Below are positions 51,736-57,806 of a stretch of 64,000 nt of DNA, in pieces (position 1 is the first letter of the stretch; the number at the start of each line of letters is the position of its first letter). This DNA is from Myxococcales bacterium. GTDB lineage: Bacteria; Myxococcota_A; Polyangia; Polyangiales; Polyangiaceae. The translations under genes and the position numbers were made by a program. The notes beneath the pieces are model-generated. The model worked only from the letters and a program-made list of their open reading frames with translations, was not told the origin of the DNA and ran no database searches. The stretch is from positions 42,625 through 106,624 of the forward strand of contig JADIZX010000009.1 in the NCBI GenBank assembly GCA_016704525.1, in the 5' to 3' direction.

Positions 51736-51842
51736 AGCTCACCGTCACGGCGCCGTTGCGCCCCGCCGAGCGAAGATCGGCGCGGCTCAGCGTCGGAGAC
51801 GGTCGTGAAGACCTATCGCGCCCATCTATGAGACTGAATTAG

Positions 51843-53099
51843 TTAGAAGTGCTGGGTGATCCCGAACTGCGCGAACCAGGTCGCGATCGGGTGATGGATC
51901 CGTGCGACGTCGACGCGCAGCAGGGTGTCGACGAGCGCTGTCGGGAGGAGGCGCAGGCCGGCGCCGGTCGACCACGCCGTCATCGCCGGGGTGGAGGCTC
52001 CGCGCGCGTCCATCGGCTCGAACACCGCCGCGTCCGTAAACAGCACGCCTTGCACGTACCAGCGGCGCGCGATCTCGATGGCGTGTCGAACCTCCAGGTT
52101 GGCATACGCCTGCGACCGATTCCGGTAGAGCGAGTCGGGCAGACCTCGCACGCCCGCCTGGCTGCCGAGCAGGGCGCTGTGGTTCGGGTTCCCGCCGTTC
52201 ACCGCGCTCGCGCTCGCATTGAGCATGAGAACGGTCTTGTTCCCCAGCGGCAGCCCCGCGATCGCCTTGGCCCTGAGCTCATGCCGAGGTTCGGCCGGTC
52301 CGACGAAGATGCCGGGCCGCAGCTCGAGCGCCGCGCGGAAGCCCCGGGGAGTGAGGTCGTTCCAGGTATACCGGTCATAGACAAGCTCGCTCGTCGTACC
52401 GAGGTAGGTGCCGTCGCGTGGCTGCGAGGGCCCGGACGCGCCGGTGAGGGTCTCTTGATAGGCGTTCAGCTGAAACTCGTATCGCCACTTCGTCGTGTAG
52501 AACGAGGGCGAGAGAAACTCCACCTCCGCGCCCAGGCGGTTTCGCTGCCACGTGTGTTGCGCGTCCGCACCCTCGAAACGGAAGCCGGAGCCTGCGTAGT
52601 AGATCTCCTGCTCGCGCGCCCAGCTGCGCGGGCGGTACGGGTGCTCGTGGAGCCAGAGGATGAAGTTGAGGCCTCGCTCACTGTAGCTCGCCTTTCCACC
52701 CAGGCGCGTCCCGTGGCCGTCCACGTCATGCTGAATCGCACCGAGCGTGAGCTTCGAGTCGGCCAGCGTCTTGCCCGTGGAGAGATCGAAGATCGGTGAG
52801 AGGGTGAACTTCCTGCGGACGCGGACGAGCAGCGTCGTGCCCGTGTGGTCGACCTCGACCTGGTCGAAGAGCGCGAGGGTCCTGATACGTCGCCGCAGCT
52901 CGACGAGCTCGGCGCCAGTGAACGACGAAGGCAGCGGCCTCGGCAGCAGCTCGCTGATCGTCTCTGGCTCGGTCTTCTCCAGACCTTCGCTCCGCAGGGT
53001 CTCGATCGCGTAGGTGGCGGACGGGTCGAGGTCAGCCCCCGCGGGGGTCGCGTACATCAGCGAGGCGAGTCCACACGCGAGGAGGAGTGGACGCTTCAT
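51843..53099 (-). CDS. Outer-membrane beta-barrel protein of the bacterial surface antigen (Omp85/ShlB-like) family
   Basis: Signal peptide. POTRA-like N-terminal region. C-terminal barrel with alternating residues ending in an aromatic residue (…GITQHF). Its start overlaps the BlaR1-like gene stop. Confidence 0.6.
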   Translation of the reverse strand: MKRPLLLACGLASLMYATPAGADLDPSATYAIETLRSEGLEKTEPETISELLPRPLPSSFTGAELVELRRRIRTLALFDQVEVDHTGTTLLVRVRRKFTLSPIFDLSTGKTLADSKLTLGAIQHDVDGHGTRLGGKASYSERGLNFILWLHEHPYRPRSWAREQEIYYAGSGFRFEGADAQHTWQRNRLGAEVEFLSPSFYTTKWRYEFQLNAYQETLTGASGPSQPRDGTYLGTTSELVYDRYTWNDLTPRGFRAALELRPGIFVGPAEPRHELRAKAIAGLPLGNKTVLMLNASASAVNGGNPNHSALLGSQAGVRGLPDSLYRNRSQAYANLEVRHAIEIARRWYVQGVLFTDAAVFEPMDARGASTPAMTAWSTGAGLRLLPTALVDTLLRVDVARIHHPIATWFAQFGITQHF

Positions 53100-53917
53100 G
53101 GGCTTCCCGCGAGGATCGCGACGTACGGCGCGGACGCGACGACCCCGAAGACGAACGCGGCGATCGCGAGGCTCACCGCGAAGGGCGCCAGGAACGAACG
53201 GCGCCCCTCGGGGTGCGGCGCCGGTGGGGAGAGCAACCGGCGGACACGGATCTCGAGGAGCGTCGCGTCGTCTGCCAGGGCCGCCCCCGCCCTGGTCCGC
53301 CCCTGGGCAAGGCTCGCCGCCTTGACGAGGGCGCTCGCGAGGTCGGCCGCGTCGACGTTCGGGTCCTGGACGGCCTCGTCATCGCGCGCGAGCTCGAGCG
53401 CCGCGAGCCAGGCGCGCTGTCGGAGTCGTGGGCGAGAGAAGGGCCATTGGAGATCCGTCAGGAGCTGCACGATCCAGATCCAGCGCGGATCGCAGTGACG
53501 GACGTGCGCCTCCTCGTGAGCCATCACGGCACGGAGCTCGCCGGGGCGCAGCATCGCGAGCAGCTCCGCGCTGAGCTTGACCGTGGGACGGAACAGACCG
53601 ACGGTCAGCGCCGGCCCCTCGACCTCGGCGAACACCGCGAGGACGGCCCGCACGCCCGCGCGTAGCCATACGAGTCCAAAAGGCACCGCGGCGATGAGGC
53701 GCGTGACGTTCAATCCCTGCGGGCCCTCGGGATCGGCGACCGCAAAGCCGAGCAGGACGAACAACGGCAGCGACGCGGGCAGCGCTGGAAGCCAGAGACG
53801 GCGCCACGCGACTCGCTCCCCCGCATCCGGCGGAGTGGGCACGAGCGCCCCGAAGAGCCATATGAGCGCGCCGCTCAGGAGGACGATGAGCAGCTCCGCG
53901 ACTTCGTCACGATCCAC
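53096..53917 (-). CDS. BlaR1-type M56 family membrane metalloprotease signal transducer
   Basis: Four TM segments with the HExxH zinc motif (AVMAHEEAHVRH) in the cytoplasmic loop. Overlaps the blaI stop. Confidence 0.75.
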   Translation of the reverse strand: MDRDEVAELLIVLLSGALIWLFGALVPTPPDAGERVAWRRLWLPALPASLPLFVLLGFAVADPEGPQGLNVTRLIAAVPFGLVWLRAGVRAVLAVFAEVEGPALTVGLFRPTVKLSAELLAMLRPGELRAVMAHEEAHVRHCDPRWIWIVQLLTDLQWPFSRPRLRQRAWLAALELARDDEAVQDPNVDAADLASALVKAASLAQGRTRAGAALADDATLLEIRVRRLLSPPAPHPEGRRSFLAPFAVSLAIAAFVFGVVASAPYVAILAGSP

Positions 53918-54293
53918 GACGACTCCTCCGGCGGGCGGCGATCTCCTCGGCGAGACGGTCGAGCAGGGCGGGATCGTACGTCTCGACCGCGTCGACGAGC
54001 CTGGCCACCGCGGGCTCGGGATCGCCTCCGAAGATGCGGCTCACCAGGTCGCGAACGCGTGAGCGCTCCACGGCGCGTTCCGGCCTCGCAGGTCGAAACA
54101 CGAGCGCCCTGCCGTCCCGCTCGCGGGTCACGAACCCCTTCTTGTGGAGCCGATCGAGGACGGTCGAGATGGTCGTGTAGGCGAGCCCTCGTGGCACGCC
54201 GACTCGCTCGTGCACCTCGCGCACGGTGCACGTGCCAAGCTGCCAAACGGCGGAGAGGATCTCGTGCTCTTGCTCACCCAGCGTCGACGTCAT
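53907..54293 (-). CDS. BlaI/MecI/CopY family transcriptional repressor
   Basis: Winged-helix Penicillinase_R family (EILSAVWQLGTCTVREVHERV...GLAYTTISTVLDRLHKKGFV). 128 aa from the Met at MTSTLGEQ. Confidence 0.8.
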   Translation of the reverse strand: MTSTLGEQEHEILSAVWQLGTCTVREVHERVGVPRGLAYTTISTVLDRLHKKGFVTRERDGRALVFRPARPERAVERSRVRDLVSRIFGGDPEPAVARLVDAVETYDPALLDRLAEEIAARRRSRRGS

Positions 54294-54314
54294 GTTGGGT
54301 TCAGCGTCTACTAC

Positions 54315-54350
54315 TACATCTGTAGAATGAGTCAACTACACGTGTAGAAG
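54315..54350 (-). promoter_or_regulatory. Two TACA-N2-TGTA dyads (BlaI/MecI-type operators) overlapping a TTGACT -35-like hexamer upstream of blaI
   Basis: On the minus strand: TTCTACACGTGTAG-TTGACT-CATTCTACAGATGTAG...ATG. Dyads TACACGTGTA and TACAGATGTA lie 25-55 bp upstream of the start. Confidence 0.6.
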
Positions 54351-54384: not shown

Positions 54385-55299
54385 TCAGGCTCGAGGTCGG
54401 GCCGAGAGCACGGAGGGTCCCTGCAGCACGCGCTCGCTGTCTCCCTCGATCGCCCTCACCCAGGCCTCCCAGCGAATGGGCTGGCGTGCGAAGACGAGCT
54501 CCTCCGCGGTCACGCTCGGGTGCTCGCCCTCCGCGCGGCCCCCCCTCACGACCGGCGCGAGAGAGCCGGTGCCACGGAGATCGTAGACGAGCTCCGTCCG
54601 AAAGCCCTCCTCGGGCCAGACGATGAGCCCCTCGTCCGCGATGTCATAGCGGGCCCCCTCTCCGATGAGCGCCTCGATCTGCTCGCGCACGAGATCGACC
54701 GCCGCGAGCTTGTAGAGCCCAGACAAGACCGTCTCCATGATCGCCCGCTGTTCGGGCGAAAGGACCGCGAAGAAGCCCGGCTCGCCCACGCTCGCGACGA
54801 GCCAGCCCGACTGCTCCTCGAAGTGAAGCCACGCCACGTCGCTGGCTTCCCGCTCACCCTGTTCATGGGGCGACGCGCGCAGCTCGAGGCCGACGCGGAT
54901 TCGGTTCGATCCGACCCTCACCGCGTGCACGAGGACCTCGCCCGAGGTCCACCGCCGGACACGACGCAGGAGCCCCGCGAGCTCACGCTCGACGAACGTC
55001 GTGAGACCGCGCTCGACCTCGCGGACTCCCTCTCGGTGCGCGTTCACCGAGCGCGCCCCACGTCGCGCCGCGAGCCTCAGCTTCGCGAAGAGCTTCGGGA
55101 CCGTGCCCGAGTGAAAGCCGACCACGAGCAAGCCGTTCATCGTCTCGCCGTGATGGCCAATCCGAACAGGCTCGAGCGACTCGGCGCGATTGTGTGCGTA
55201 GAGCTCCCAGTTCTCGTTGAGCTCCCACACCAAGAAGCCGAAGACGCCGGGCAGCAGGAACACCGTGGTGCCCGCGACGGTGTTCGCCACGACGGCCCC
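54385..55299 (-). CDS. C-terminal ~300-aa continuation of the same membrane protein in the +1 frame (possible frameshift or pseudogene)
   Basis: Protein-like sequence (TVFLLPGVFGFLVWELNENWELYAHNR...) begins exactly where the upstream frame degenerates. The two frames switch at a C5 (G5 on the coding strand) homopolymer at ~55296-55300. Confidence 0.45.
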   Translation of the reverse strand, partial: GAVVANTVAGTTVFLLPGVFGFLVWELNENWELYAHNRAESLEPVRIGHHGETMNGLLVVGFHSGTVPKLFAKLRLAARRGARSVNAHREGVREVERGLTTFVERELAGLLRRVRRWTSGEVLVHAVRVGSNRIRVGLELRASPHEQGEREASDVAWLHFEEQSGWLVASVGEPGFFAVLSPEQRAIMETVLSGLYKLAAVDLVREQIEALIGEGARYDIADEGLIVWPEEGFRTELVYDLRGTGSLAPVVRGGRAEGEHPSVTAEELVFARQPIRWEAWVRAIEGDSERVLQGPSVLSARPRA

Positions 55300-57806
55300 C
55301 GGAGAGGGACGAGGGGCGTCCGCATCGCCTCGAGGAGGGTCGGGGCCATCGGGAGCAAGATCTTGTGCGAGACCGTGACGACCGGAAAATGTTTGATCGG
55401 GTTCACCTGCGGCTCGATGAGCAGGTTCACGTACACACGCACGAGGTAGGTCACGAAGAACCACACGAGCCCGAACGCGCCCTTCATGACGACGGCGAGG
55501 GTGCCCTGCCCGTCCCGGAAGGTGAGCCACTCGTCGACCGTGTAGATGCCCCGCTCCACGCGCTCGACGGCGCGCCGAGAGACATCGAGCGCGAGCGCGA
55601 CGAGCCCTGGGATCACGTGGCGCCGAAGGTTACCAATGCCGCGCAGGACGAGGTCGCTCGCCGACTCCTCCATCCGCGCGCCGAACGGGGTCCCGAAGAA
55701 GAGCGCCGCGACGACGAAGACGCCACCGGCCGCCGCCGCGCTGCCCGGAGCGGCGAGACCGTGACGCCGGGCGAACAGGAAACCGGGCGCCCCGAGGACG
55801 AGCGGCTTCAGCACCAACCGCGAGAAGAGCGCGAAGGGCGCGCTGCGAAGGAAGGCCTTCACGACGGGGCGGCTGAGGACCCACGAGGGAATGCCCACGA
55901 AGACGGTCCGCACCGCGGAGCCCGCAGAGGACAGCGCGCCGAGCGCGGCCCGCCGAAAGGGGAGACTGTGAAGCAGTCCATAGACGATGAGCGCCACCAC
56001 GGCCATTGAGAGGGTGGTGCGAATCGGAACGTGCGGATGACCGACTTTCTTGCCTATCCCGTGGGCCAGGTGCTGGAGAGCTTCGAGGAAGACGAACGCC
56101 GCGAGCAGGGGGATGACGGCGTGCAACGTGATCTTGCGGCCAAGAGAGGTACCAAAGGCCACTCCGCTCGCCTTCTGCAGCCCCCGAAGATAGACCTCGC
56201 CGGGTCGGTACACGCCATCGAGGCGAAGCGACAGCTGCCGATCCGCGCGGAGCAGCGCGTCCCCGCCGGTCAAGGCGGCGAGGGTGAGATTCCCCATCTT
56301 GAGGTTGCTCCGAGAGAGCGCGTCGCGAAGCTCTGACAGCCCCAGGAATCCCCGTTCCAAGATCTGGTCCAAGATCTCCGCGCAGAGCTTCTCTCGCGCG
56401 ACCTCCTCCGGCACGTTGGAGGGGCGCAAGCCGACCTCGTCGAGCACCGCTGTGAGGACCGGGAGGACCGAGCGCTCCACGTTCGTTCGAGCGCGGGAGA
56501 CGGCCGAGCGAAAGGTCGTCTCCAGGTCGCGCCTGTCGCCCGCCCCGATCTCGGCGCGGTGCGAGGTCACGAACGCGTGATGGAGGCGGCGCGCGATCCT
56601 GACGCGCGTGGCCATCGGCAGCGGACGCACGATCCGGCGTCGAAAGCCGGACGTCACCCAGGTGATCACGTCGACCGCGCGGCGCTCGCGCTCATGCTCC
56701 ACGCAGGCCTTCTGGAGGTCGAAGAGGACCCTCGCCTCGAGCGACCGCGGTGACCATGCGCCCGCCGCCCGCTCGGCGAGCGGCGCGAGGGTGCGCTCCC
56801 ACTCCGCCGCTATGGGGCCCGCCGGGCCCGCCTGCTCCGCCGGGTCGTCGTGCTCGGGTCGGAGCGCGGCCACGAGGCGAGCCGCGAGGGTCGAGAGGTC
56901 GGCGGTCGCGCCCGCGCGCGCTTCGGGAGTATCCAGCTGGAGCTGCAAGATCGCGGCGCGTGCGTGGTTCCCGTCGCTCCTGACGCGTTCGGCGAGCGCC
57001 CGGAGCACCCCGACGCGCGCCCCGGCTTGGGCCGCCGCGCGAGCGTCCCCGGCGAGCACCCGGCCGCTCTGCCGACGAGGCTCGCCGTCGCGCTCATCGC
57101 GCGGTGCGGGCGGCGCCCCCGCGGGACGCGAGCGGGCGAGCAGCGCGGCCGCGTCGAGCTCGAGGGCGAGCGCAGCTTCGACACGCGCCGTGTCCTCGAG
57201 GGTGGGGAAATACTTCGCGAGGTCTTGGGCCGCGAAGTGCCGCAGCTCGAGGAAGAAGGCGGCAAACTCGATATAGGCCTCCGCGTCGTCCCCTGGCGAA
57301 AACAGGAGGTGCTCGCCCTCGAGGACGGCGCGTATTTCGTCGAACTCGGTCTGACCGATTTGGTCAATCTTCGCCTTGAGCTCCGCGCTCCCCAGCGCGC
57401 CGCTTCGCACGCGGCTCTCGAGCTCGGCGTGCACGTGGCCATGGAACGCCGCCCGCCAAACGGCAGGGGCTCGATCGAGCTCCGGGAGGTCTGGCCGGGC
57501 GACGAGGATCACGCTCTCCGGGAGCTCGGCGACGCCGAGGTCCTCGAGACGGACGAGGCCCTCGAGGGCGGCGCGCGGCAGGACGATCACGTGCCCGTGC
57601 GGGACCTGGAGGCCCATGCCCGTGATTCCCCGATAGCGCTTCACCACGCGGCGCACGAGCCTCGCGTCCGCGACGACGGCCCGCGCCGTAGCCGCCTGCG
57701 TGGGCCCCCCTCGCCGCTCGGCGCCGTCGTCCGAAGGCGTGTCGACCATGGCCCACTCTACCGCGAAGACGCGAGTCATCGCAGCTCGCGGCGCGGCGGC
57801 GCGCAC
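55137..57806 (-). CDS. Large polytopic membrane protein, N-terminal ~830-aa fragment (frame breaks at ~55300)
   Basis: Long ORF with multiple TM helices in its C-terminal half and no recognisable catalytic motifs. Sequence quality collapses into Ser/Cys/Arg junk for the last ~54 codons. Confidence 0.55.
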   Translation of the reverse strand: MRAAAPRAAMTRVFAVEWAMVDTPSDDGAERRGGPTQAATARAVVADARLVRRVVKRYRGITGMGLQVPHGHVIVLPRAALEGLVRLEDLGVAELPESVILVARPDLPELDRAPAVWRAAFHGHVHAELESRVRSGALGSAELKAKIDQIGQTEFDEIRAVLEGEHLLFSPGDDAEAYIEFAAFFLELRHFAAQDLAKYFPTLEDTARVEAALALELDAAALLARSRPAGAPPAPRDERDGEPRRQSGRVLAGDARAAAQAGARVGVLRALAERVRSDGNHARAAILQLQLDTPEARAGATADLSTLAARLVAALRPEHDDPAEQAGPAGPIAAEWERTLAPLAERAAGAWSPRSLEARVLFDLQKACVEHERERRAVDVITWVTSGFRRRIVRPLPMATRVRIARRLHHAFVTSHRAEIGAGDRRDLETTFRSAVSRARTNVERSVLPVLTAVLDEVGLRPSNVPEEVAREKLCAEILDQILERGFLGLSELRDALSRSNLKMGNLTLAALTGGDALLRADRQLSLRLDGVYRPGEVYLRGLQKASGVAFGTSLGRKITLHAVIPLLAAFVFLEALQHLAHGIGKKVGHPHVPIRTTLSMAVVALIVYGLLHSLPFRRAALGALSSAGSAVRTVFVGIPSWVLSRPVVKAFLRSAPFALFSRLVLKPLVLGAPGFLFARRHGLAAPGSAAAAGGVFVVAALFFGTPFGARMEESASDLVLRGIGNLRRHVIPGLVALALDVSRRAVERVERGIYTVDEWLTFRDGQGTLAVVMKGAFGLVWFFVTYLVRVYVNLLIEPQVNPIKHFPVVTVSHKILLPMAPTLLEAMRTPLVPLRGPSWRTPSRAPRCSCCPASSASWCGSSTRTGSSTHTIAPSRSSLFGLAITARR

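Follow-up and report, generated by a model that had tools for sequence, protein, structure and literature searches.

A sensor-less BlaI/M56 regulatory pair overlapping a gene for a one-POTRA Omp85-like barrel, and tandem TACAnnTGTA dyads, in a Myxococcales genome

A 64,000-nucleotide stretch of contig JADIZX010000009.1 from a Myxococcales bacterium (assembly GCA_016704525.1, positions 42,625 to 106,624 of the forward strand; hereafter the window) carries on its minus strand three overlapping open reading frames (ORFs), arranged head to tail, which specify in order a BlaI-like repressor, an M56 membrane zinc protease and an outer-membrane β-barrel related to the Omp85 proteins. A first inspection, here called the sequence-only reading, had recognized these three gene products and taken their genes as one operon. 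The identities are upheld by Pfam, by sequence profiles and by AlphaFold2 (AF2) modeling, and the operon by overlaps of 11 and 4 nt that are kept in orthologous loci. The features are listed here in the order of transcription, with residue numbers for the protein motifs and domains (TM, transmembrane; aa, amino acids):

54337..54346, minus strand: distal operator dyad O1, TACACGTGTA, with the extended form TTCTACACGTGTAGT at 54335-54349
54330..54335, minus strand: −35-like hexamer TTGACT, read from the sequence as a putative promoter element
54315..54324, minus strand: proximal operator dyad O2, TACAGATGTA, with the extended form TTCTACAGATGTAGT at 54313-54327, in the promoter spacer
54308..54313, minus strand: putative −10-like element TAGTAG, 16 nt after TTGACT and 14 nt before the ATG
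53907..54293, minus strand: blaI-like repressor gene, 128 aa, winged-helix BlaI/MecI/CopY family, PF03965
53096..53917, minus strand: gene for the M56 (BlaR1-like) membrane zinc protease, GTG start, 273 aa, four TM helices, PF05569
53504-53518, minus strand: HEEAH (HExxH) motif of the protease, with H134, E135 and H138
53381-53395, minus strand: ELARD (ExxxD) motif of the protease, with E175 and D179
51843..53099, minus strand: gene for the mini-Omp85 (BamA-like) outer-membrane protein, 418 aa, C-terminal end Q-H-F
~aa 1-22 of the barrel protein: predicted signal peptide
52812-53015, minus strand: single POTRA domain of the barrel protein (aa 29-96), AF2 model
51855-52802, minus strand: 16-strand barrel (aa 100-415), AF2 model
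52140-52151, minus strand: VRGL, a VRG(Y/F)-type motif (aa 317-320), within the invariant G316-x-R318-G319-L320-x-D322

The stop codon of the blaI-like gene and the GTG start of the M56 gene overlap by 11 nt (53907-53917), and the M56 stop codon and the ATG of the barrel gene share the tetranucleotide ATGA (53096-53099), a start/stop overlap by which the mini-Omp85 gene is translationally coupled to the M56 gene. The next gene downstream codes for a Ser/Thr kinase and is convergent with the barrel gene; hence, the operon ends at its third gene.

The repressor matches Penicillinase_R (PF03965) with E=1.2e-28, residues 19-132 of the 142-aa ORF aligning to profile positions 1-113 of 115, so that the winged helix and the C-terminal helical dimerization domain typical of these repressors are both covered. 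The longer ORF begins at a TTG (54335) that lies inside the promoter; alignment with five orthologues places the real start at the ATG at 54293. The closest NCBIfam models are CopY/TcrY, BlaI and MecI, all far under their cut-offs (45 bits for CopY/TcrY, TIGR02698, against a cut-off of 122), and we therefore regard the protein as a member of the family and not as an orthologue of any named repressor. The order of these matches raises the possibility of a metal-responsive switch in the manner of CopY, in which the repressor itself would sense a metal, the M56 protein would be an accessory and the barrel would form a channel for metal or oxyanion homeostasis. The operator core equals the cop box (PMC7253601), related regulatory pairs precede efflux genes of the CusB/OEP type, and barrel homologues have ChrA or ChrB (L006, L149) or a P-type ATPase and a cupredoxin (L001) beside them. 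However, besides the low score of the CopY match, the repressor has a single cysteine (C22), ends in ...AARRRSRRGS and has none of the C-terminal CxC metal motifs in its sequence, and therefore is not a CopY-type metal sensor. It is, moreover, always paired with an M56 protease that has intact zinc-ligand motifs, and the metal-related contexts are scattered instead of conserved; we consider such a switch very improbable.

The M56 protein scores 36.9 bits against Peptidase_M56 (PF05569; gathering score 31), with a weaker match to M48. As is characteristic of Peptidase M56, an HExxH motif is followed by an ExxxD motif between TM3 and TM4, and the residues H134, E135, H138, E175 and D179 do not vary among 30 homologues of 266-299 aa. 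The same two motifs are listed as the zinc-site motifs of BlaR1 (10.64898/2026.08.03.742534). The AF2 model (predicted local distance difference test, pLDDT, 87.6) shows three N-terminal TM helices, a helical protease domain and a final helix at residues 243-269; the sequence profile found no match in the PDB, and Foldseek with the model gave nothing significant. An extracytoplasmic sensor domain is absent: in agreement with the 30 homologues and the model, the protein ends at residue 273, ~12 residues past the fourth TM helix, the lengths of all 36 homologues being 266-328 aa. It thus has no counterpart of the C-terminal, transpeptidase-like penicillin-binding sensor domain of the canonical BlaR1 and MecR1. 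The initial description as a BlaR1-type zinc-protease sensor accordingly stands for the protease, with its HExxH and ExxxD motifs, but not for the sensor; this is a BlaR1-type M56 protease without any sensor domain.

The barrel protein has no Pfam match, failing to reach the PF01103 threshold, and NCBIfam offers nothing usable; its Omp85 membership therefore rests on profile and structure. It has 153 homologues, mostly unnamed and of 400-435 aa. A profile of 46 sequences of the family, compared with the PDB, recovers POTRA5 and the first barrel strands of BamA (E=1e-12). The AF2 model (pLDDT 91; predicted template modeling score 0.85) consists of a signal peptide, one POTRA with a β-α-α-β-β arrangement and 16 strands, combining the C-terminal 16-strand barrel with the N-terminal POTRA, at least one of which typifies the Omp85 superfamily. 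Foldseek with this model gives BamA and TamA as its top 50 matches (E as low as ~1e-15), without any FhaC. Within GVRGLPD, the residues G316, R318, G319, L320 and D322 are invariant in the 46 sequences, as also seen in an 11-sequence alignment. We take this VRG segment, from the structures of BamA, TamA and FhaC, to be the Omp85 loop 6 marker (V/I)RG(Y/F), here with L as its final position and not Y or F. An FxDAA stretch and the C-terminal Q-x-F are likewise conserved. When the 46 relatives were scanned singly at E<=1, 14 matched POTRA, 10 matched Omp85 (PF01103) and 3 matched ShlB (E>=0.0065). An exhaustive profile search delimits a core family of ~40 full-length clusters at 50% identity, followed by a sharp drop and then by a second tier of ~420-aa proteins, most of which match POTRA and/or Omp85. 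Hence, of the earlier label, a surface-antigen-family β-barrel, the Omp85-type barrel is retained on the strength of the profile, the model and Foldseek, but the Pfam family is not.

With one POTRA, and with BamA and TamA nearest in both structure and profile, the type of barrel could be narrowed down as the sequence-only reading had proposed. BamA itself, which together with BamD makes up the essential core of BAM, was rejected for its five POTRAs and ~800 aa against one POTRA and 418 aa here. TamA has three POTRAs, and no large DUF490-type (tamB) gene is found in any locus with the trio. An assignment to TpsB (FhaC/ShlB) is contradicted by the single POTRA, by the lack of a plug helix besides the signal peptide and by the lack of a large neighboring exoprotein gene, and one to PlpD (type Vd) by a POTRA that starts ~7 residues after the predicted signal-peptide cleavage site, leaving no passenger such as the patatin domain of PlpD. 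We also dismissed a supposed M56-barrel fusion, P0056 (669 aa), whose N-terminal extension is a spurious read-through without M56 similarity. P0265 (748 aa), a distant relative of the barrel family in the second tier, has an N-terminal calcineurin-like phosphoesterase (Metallophos) domain before its POTRA and barrel; the architecture resembles that of PlpD (type Vd), but the passenger is another one. The "BamA-like" Omp85 subfamily has been described as having 1-3 POTRA domains (Heinz and Lithgow 2014, PMC4104836), and the best label for the barrel of the window is a passenger-less, one-POTRA "BamA-like" Omp85 in this sense.

The same data bear on the proposal that the barrel is an export device, i.e., a translocator of the TpsB or type Vd kind that secretes a specific substrate upon induction. 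It could draw on the weak ShlB matches (3/46 relatives at E<=1, together with the second-tier relatives), on the Metallophos passenger of P0265 and on a small exported protein encoded directly upstream of the barrel in Nitrospira (see below). Against this, there is one POTRA and not two, the model contains neither an N-terminal plug helix nor a passenger, and the top structure and profile matches are BamA and TamA, without FhaC in the top 50; further, none of the eight loci has a TpsA-like gene or another conserved gene for a secreted protein beside the trio, and the Nitrospira protein is missing from the window and from all the myxobacterial loci. Only a slim chance is left to such a device. 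The barrel most likely acts, as we infer its activity, in the biogenesis or repair of outer-membrane proteins or lipids under stress.

Upstream of the operon lie the only two copies of the core TACANNTGTA (TACAnnTGTA) that the 64-kb window contains, at 54315-54324 and 54337-54346, against an expectation of 0.02; none of 100 shuffles contained two or more. Both dyads are part of a 15-nt direct repeat, ACTACAnnTGTAGAA, with 22 nt from start to start. O1 ends 1 nt upstream of TTGACT and O2 fills the spacer, the order on the coding strand being cc TTCTACACGTGTAGT TGACT cat TCTACAGATGTAGT AGTAGAcgctgaacccaac ATG. The two canonical dyads are thus as first noticed, but they flank the TTGACT hexamer and do not lie over it. 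The location of the −10-like TAGTAG implies a very short leader. In the bla and mec operators, TACANNTGTA is the conserved core of the BlaI/MecI sites (PMC1935004); the extended CTACAnnTGTAGT matches the core CTACATTTGTAGT of the S. aureus mecA operator, and the printed mecA operator, GACTACATTTGTAGTAT, fits the extended dyads (PMC1935004). CopY commonly has two operators, separated by a few tens of bp, and in the CopY/BlaI group it has been proposed that they block the −35 element and the RNA-polymerase site, respectively (PMC7253601). Judged by the sequence, the dyads would be BlaI/MecI/CopY-type operators, with a TACANNTGTA-core palindrome at the repressor's own promoter. The autoregulatory layout of the blaI/mecI type suggested at the outset agrees with this, since spacing and sequence match the published core (PMC1935004) and the dyads are kept in orthologous loci. 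Many related blaI loci have TTGAC(A/C) at the equivalent place upstream of the palindrome, and in related loci TAGnAT overlaps the right arm of the operator; GTAGTAGTAG recurs in L147.

The trio is found, co-linear and overlapping, in five other lineages (L006, L008, L009, L147 and L150). The nearest, a Polyangiaceae metagenome-assembled genome (MAG; L009), has a barrel with 80% identity to that of the window and two dyads 22 nt apart. In a metagenomic locus with a 75% identical barrel (L150), TCTACATTTGTAGTAGA and TCTACATCTGTAGTAGA are also 22 nt apart, and a Labilithrix MAG (L006, the same as L010; 65%) has two dyads 17 nt apart. Two more metagenomic loci have a single dyad of the TACGACAnnTGTCGTA type, which in L008 (barrel 57%) is a perfect palindrome of the TCTACGACAC/GCGTCGTAGA type; the barrel of the other, L147, is 63% identical. 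In two further lineages, L007 and L148 (barrels 52% and 53% identical to that of the window), the barrel gene is inverted and divergent from blaI-M56. Between these two loci the barrels share 66% identity and the M56 proteins 42%, and the intergenic region of 63-66 bp contains two dyads 33-34 nt apart, one of which abuts the ATG of the barrel gene. The operator thus travels with the inverted barrel gene, which is therefore the strongest evidence for control of the barrel by BlaI. Taken with the other loci, these comparisons lend support to a putative control of the barrel by the repressor. Eight further M56 homologues have a longest contig equal in length to that of barrel homologues, which would be consistent with additional linked cases.

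Counting the window, the linkage of BlaI, M56 and barrel extends over eight lineages, down to 52% barrel identity. Such a record, with conserved start/stop overlaps and with dyads that number 0.02 by chance, are conserved and follow the inverted barrel gene, stands against the view that unrelated ORFs and fortuitous dyads have been brought together by chance adjacency or mis-annotation. The largely independent distribution of the barrel family and the BlaI/M56 pair is what could be said for that view, to which we assign a vanishing probability; it is in effect already refuted by the comparative data. The barrel occupies the place that blaZ or mecA would have, and its operator follows it upon inversion, so that its casting as the regulated cargo in the sequence-only reading is supported.

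The barrel and the regulatory pair are each more widespread than their combination. A scan of one genome per GTDB species with an 11-sequence alignment of the barrel family returned 58 loci, mostly from Nitrospira, including N. moscoviensis, with a few from Myxococcota and Bdellovibrionota; BlaI/M56 lies within 6 kb of the barrel (<=6 kb; phmmer and five-sequence hidden Markov models, HMMs) only in L009 and L010. Conversely, a metagenome scan with the M56 alignment yielded 47 loci (L067-L113) with a full-length short M56 of 35-46% identity, 45 of which have BlaI upstream, the other two being contigs cut at that end. The barrel is found in 0/47 of these, and a relaxed HMM search of the large downstream ORFs was also empty. 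The genes downstream of these related BlaI/short-M56 pairs code instead for OEP/TolC-like and HlyD/CusB-like proteins, TonB-dependent receptors, PBP1b and an ABC ATPase. In the 35 loci with enough upstream sequence (a 120-nt stretch was scanned), the palindrome TACGAC-N4-GTCGTA occurs in 23, perfectly in 20, against a background of 0.008 per stretch scanned; in 21/35 it lies 36-47 nt upstream of blaI, and it is framed by TTGAC(A) and TAGnAT. It looks like a family-wide operator. The TACAnnTGTA of the window aligns with its inner (T/G)ACn-NN-nGT(A/C), and L007 and L008 have intermediate TACGACAnnTGTCGTA forms. An obligate partnership of barrel and BlaI/M56 is thus not borne out, for the barrel occurs without the pair in most lineages and the same pair is found with unrelated cargo in 47 loci. 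On the distribution of the barrel, on which the first proposal had been made to depend, the answer is divided: it is modular, but the linkage is conserved in one myxobacterial clade and the operator follows the inverted barrel gene.

A short M56 protein without a sensor domain, next to a translationally coupled barrel gene, raises the possibility of a trans-envelope sensor. The POTRA of the barrel would report the status of the outer membrane to the short loop or tail of the M56 protein, in a manner like FecA-FecR, with M56 in the role of FecR and BlaI in that of the regulator under its control. The linkage persists in eight lineages if the window is included, also where the barrel gene is inverted, and barrel homologues occur beside other signaling pairs, namely OmpR-type two-component systems (L004, L013/L014 and L035); both observations would fit this. 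On the other hand, the same short M56 architecture has POTRA-less cargo in 47 loci, close barrel homologues occur without M56, and the motif of the M56 periplasmic loop is conserved in the whole short-M56 family and not just in its barrel-linked members. We hold it unlikely, as also the more far-reaching idea that the mini-Omp85 is the detached sensor of the M56 protein, with its periplasmic POTRA, or the folding state of the barrel itself, reporting outer-membrane damage or assembly stress to the protease and so leading to BlaI cleavage. If it were true, parts of BlaR1/BlaI would make up a three-compartment signaling chain from outer membrane through inner membrane to DNA, possibly an outer-membrane stress response in myxobacteria independent of sigma-E/RseA. 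The trans-envelope signaling or export device of the sequence-only reading remains unsupported, as no substrate or TpsA-like gene accompanies the trio. As the barrel and the pair each function elsewhere in the absence of the other, the simplest view is that the barrel is the output of the pair and not its obligate sensor.

We therefore favor, as the probable reading, a self-contained three-gene operon in which a portable, autoregulated module for derepression by proteolysis has the mini-Omp85 as its cargo. The BlaI/short-M56 pair is such a portable module, set before different envelope genes in different soil bacteria and before the mini-Omp85 in one myxobacterial clade. A dimer of the BlaI-family repressor, bound to the two TACAnnTGTA dyads, which enclose the −35 element and occupy the spacer, would keep blaI, M56 and mini-Omp85 off. 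Upon an envelope-related cue, the sensor-less M56 zinc protease would cleave and thereby inactivate the repressor; the whole operon, including the barrel, would then be expressed until re-synthesis of BlaI resets it. Repression, proteolytic induction and the signal are what we infer from the family (PMC1935004, PMC13492132, PMC7253601). Only ~6% of ~15,000 M56 proteins have a transpeptidase domain, and ~94% of BlaR-like proteins lack the β-lactam sensor (PMC13492132). The M56 proteins without a transpeptidase domain are thus the majority class and pair with BlaI, with signals and outputs that are not predictable (PMC13492132). As sensor-less BlaIR systems are now the rule, the regulatory pair itself is of a known kind; no paper that we found describes an Omp85-family cargo, clade-specific operator variants or the modular pattern of envelope cargo.

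Several points weigh against this module. The source organism is a MAG, the barrel protein of the window being identical to the hypothetical protein IPQ09_08860 of a "Myxococcales bacterium". The stretch of the repressor that presumably corresponds to the N101-F102 cleavage site of S. aureus BlaI reads LVDAVE and has no N-F; this site appears not to be conserved, and so BlaI cleavage here is only an analogy. By analogy with the topology of BlaR1, the periplasm-exposed part of the M56 protein would be only a loop of ~9 residues (~aa 62-70) and the tail of ~12 residues. A consensus sigma-70 scan called no promoter at the operon, for which reason the promoter is placed by its conservation in the family, and the −10 element, TAGTAG, is weak. 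Two close barrels, of L146 (74%) and L151 (72%, where it follows glnB-glnA), have no BlaI/M56 nearby, so that the linkage is not obligatory. Finally, the TACANNTGTA 10-mer is necessary but not sufficient for the binding of CopY (PMC7253601).

Other regulators and genes adjoin the barrel homologues and the trio. In L146 (3400-3500), two tandem repeats of ~50 bp, each with a palindrome TTGACACC-N3-GGTGTCAA, precede the barrel gene, and a gene for an HxlR-family regulator lies upstream; this appears to be a regulator swap. An OmpR-type response regulator and a histidine kinase, co-directional or divergent, adjoin barrel homologues in L004 (6266-8285), L013/L014 (3981-5925) and L035 (2588-4649), where the mini-Omp85 seems to have been placed repeatedly under a dedicated signaling pair. 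A ChrA gene is located directly upstream of blaI in the Labilithrix locus (L006:2278-3441), ChrB and a SOD-like gene are divergent from the barrel homologue in L149 (2380-3405), and a P-type ATPase, a cytochrome c and a cupredoxin are encoded beside it in a Nitrospiraceae locus (L001:609-3422). In 45 loci, all from Nitrospirota or close to them (L017-L066; e.g., L027:5432-5818 and L021:5372-5836), a conserved ORF of ~115 aa directly precedes the gene of the barrel homologue. Its product, which belongs to no Pfam family, has a TM segment at its N terminus, an acidic box, "EEPDNAAEHLLMPS", and the sequence "PPPRSxPVSFSIPLRI" at its C terminus. This protein, which a search showed to be absent from the window and the myxobacterial loci, could be a partner or substrate of the mini-Omp85.

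Next to the operon itself, an AT-rich stretch, TAACTAATTCAGTCTCATAGATGGG (minus strand), directly follows the stop codon of the barrel gene at 51818-51842, in a window that is GC-rich elsewhere; no hairpin resembling a terminator was called in it. On the other side, at 54385-57806 of the minus strand, ORFs of 889 and 381 aa in different frames share the stretch 55137-55530, and the pair stops shortly upstream of the promoter of the operon. Each of them is protein-like only outside the overlap and neither has a match in Pfam or NCBIfam. Probably, a single membrane protein of ~1200 aa is split into these two ORFs by a 1-nt frameshift, which is either an assembly error or the mark of a pseudogene.

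The locus and its relatives give a testable class of outputs—the envelope and the machinery of the outer membrane—to a large M56 subfamily of soil bacteria. The defined operator (TACAnnTGTA or TACGAC-N4-GTCGTA; site form CTACAnnTGTAG) could serve the computational mapping of regulons. The locus also draws attention to an unstudied family of ~420-aa, one-POTRA Omp85 proteins that is widespread in Nitrospira. That the mini-Omp85 is repeatedly found under dedicated regulators suggests that it is a conditionally needed factor of outer-membrane biogenesis or repair.

Among known systems, the barrel shares its 16 strands, single N-terminal POTRA, VRG motif and C-terminal aromatic residue with the "BamA-like" Omp85 proteins (PMC4104836), Sam50 and the POTRA-barrel part of PlpD. 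It differs from BamA and TamA in being far smaller (418 aa, with short loops) and in having no adjacent TamB or Bam lipoprotein genes that we could see, from PlpD in lacking a passenger domain, and from the known Omp85 groups in that its family is mostly undetected by Pfam and has no studied representative. With CopY/CopR, the operon shares the fold family of the repressor and a cop box, TACANNTGTA, that is present twice, with the first operator at the −35 element and the second a few tens of bp downstream (PMC7253601). Unlike the repressors of those systems, the present one lacks a CxC metal site and has a protease as its partner; the flanks of the dyads match the refined CopY consensus RNYKACANNTGTMRNY at only 13/14 (O1) and 12/14 (O2) specified positions, read by eye.

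With BlaI/BlaR1-blaZ and MecI/MecR1-mecA of S. aureus and B. licheniformis, it has in common an autoregulated combination of a winged-helix repressor and an M56 zinc protease, as well as two TACAnnTGTA dyads at the promoter, the extended CTACAnnTGTAGT equaling the mecA operator core (PMC1935004). In L007 and L148, moreover, the arrangement of blaZ|blaR1-blaI is reproduced, with the cargo gene and the regulator pair divergent on the two sides of an intergenic region that holds two dyads. Here, however, the protease lacks the penicillin-binding sensor domain of BlaR1 and MecR1, the gene order is blaI followed by M56, the cargo is an Omp85-like barrel instead of a β-lactamase or penicillin-binding protein, the host is a diderm, and the N-F site is not evident. 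Sensor-less BlaR proteins are known in Mycobacterium and P. aeruginosa (10.64898/2026.08.03.742534), and the combination of a transpeptidase-less M56 protein with BlaI is shared with the BlaI/BlaR of M. tuberculosis and M. abscessus, CenIR of C. difficile and PvmSR of P. aeruginosa (PMC13492132; 10.64898/2026.08.03.742534). CenR has a disordered tail, whereas the C-terminal extracytoplasmic region here comprises ~12 residues. Like these sensor-less BlaIR systems, the present one would have a regulon tied to the envelope or physiology; it is set apart by its outer-membrane cargo, a relative of Omp85, and by its operator, TACAnnTGTA in the clade and TACGAC-N4-GTCGTA in the relatives.

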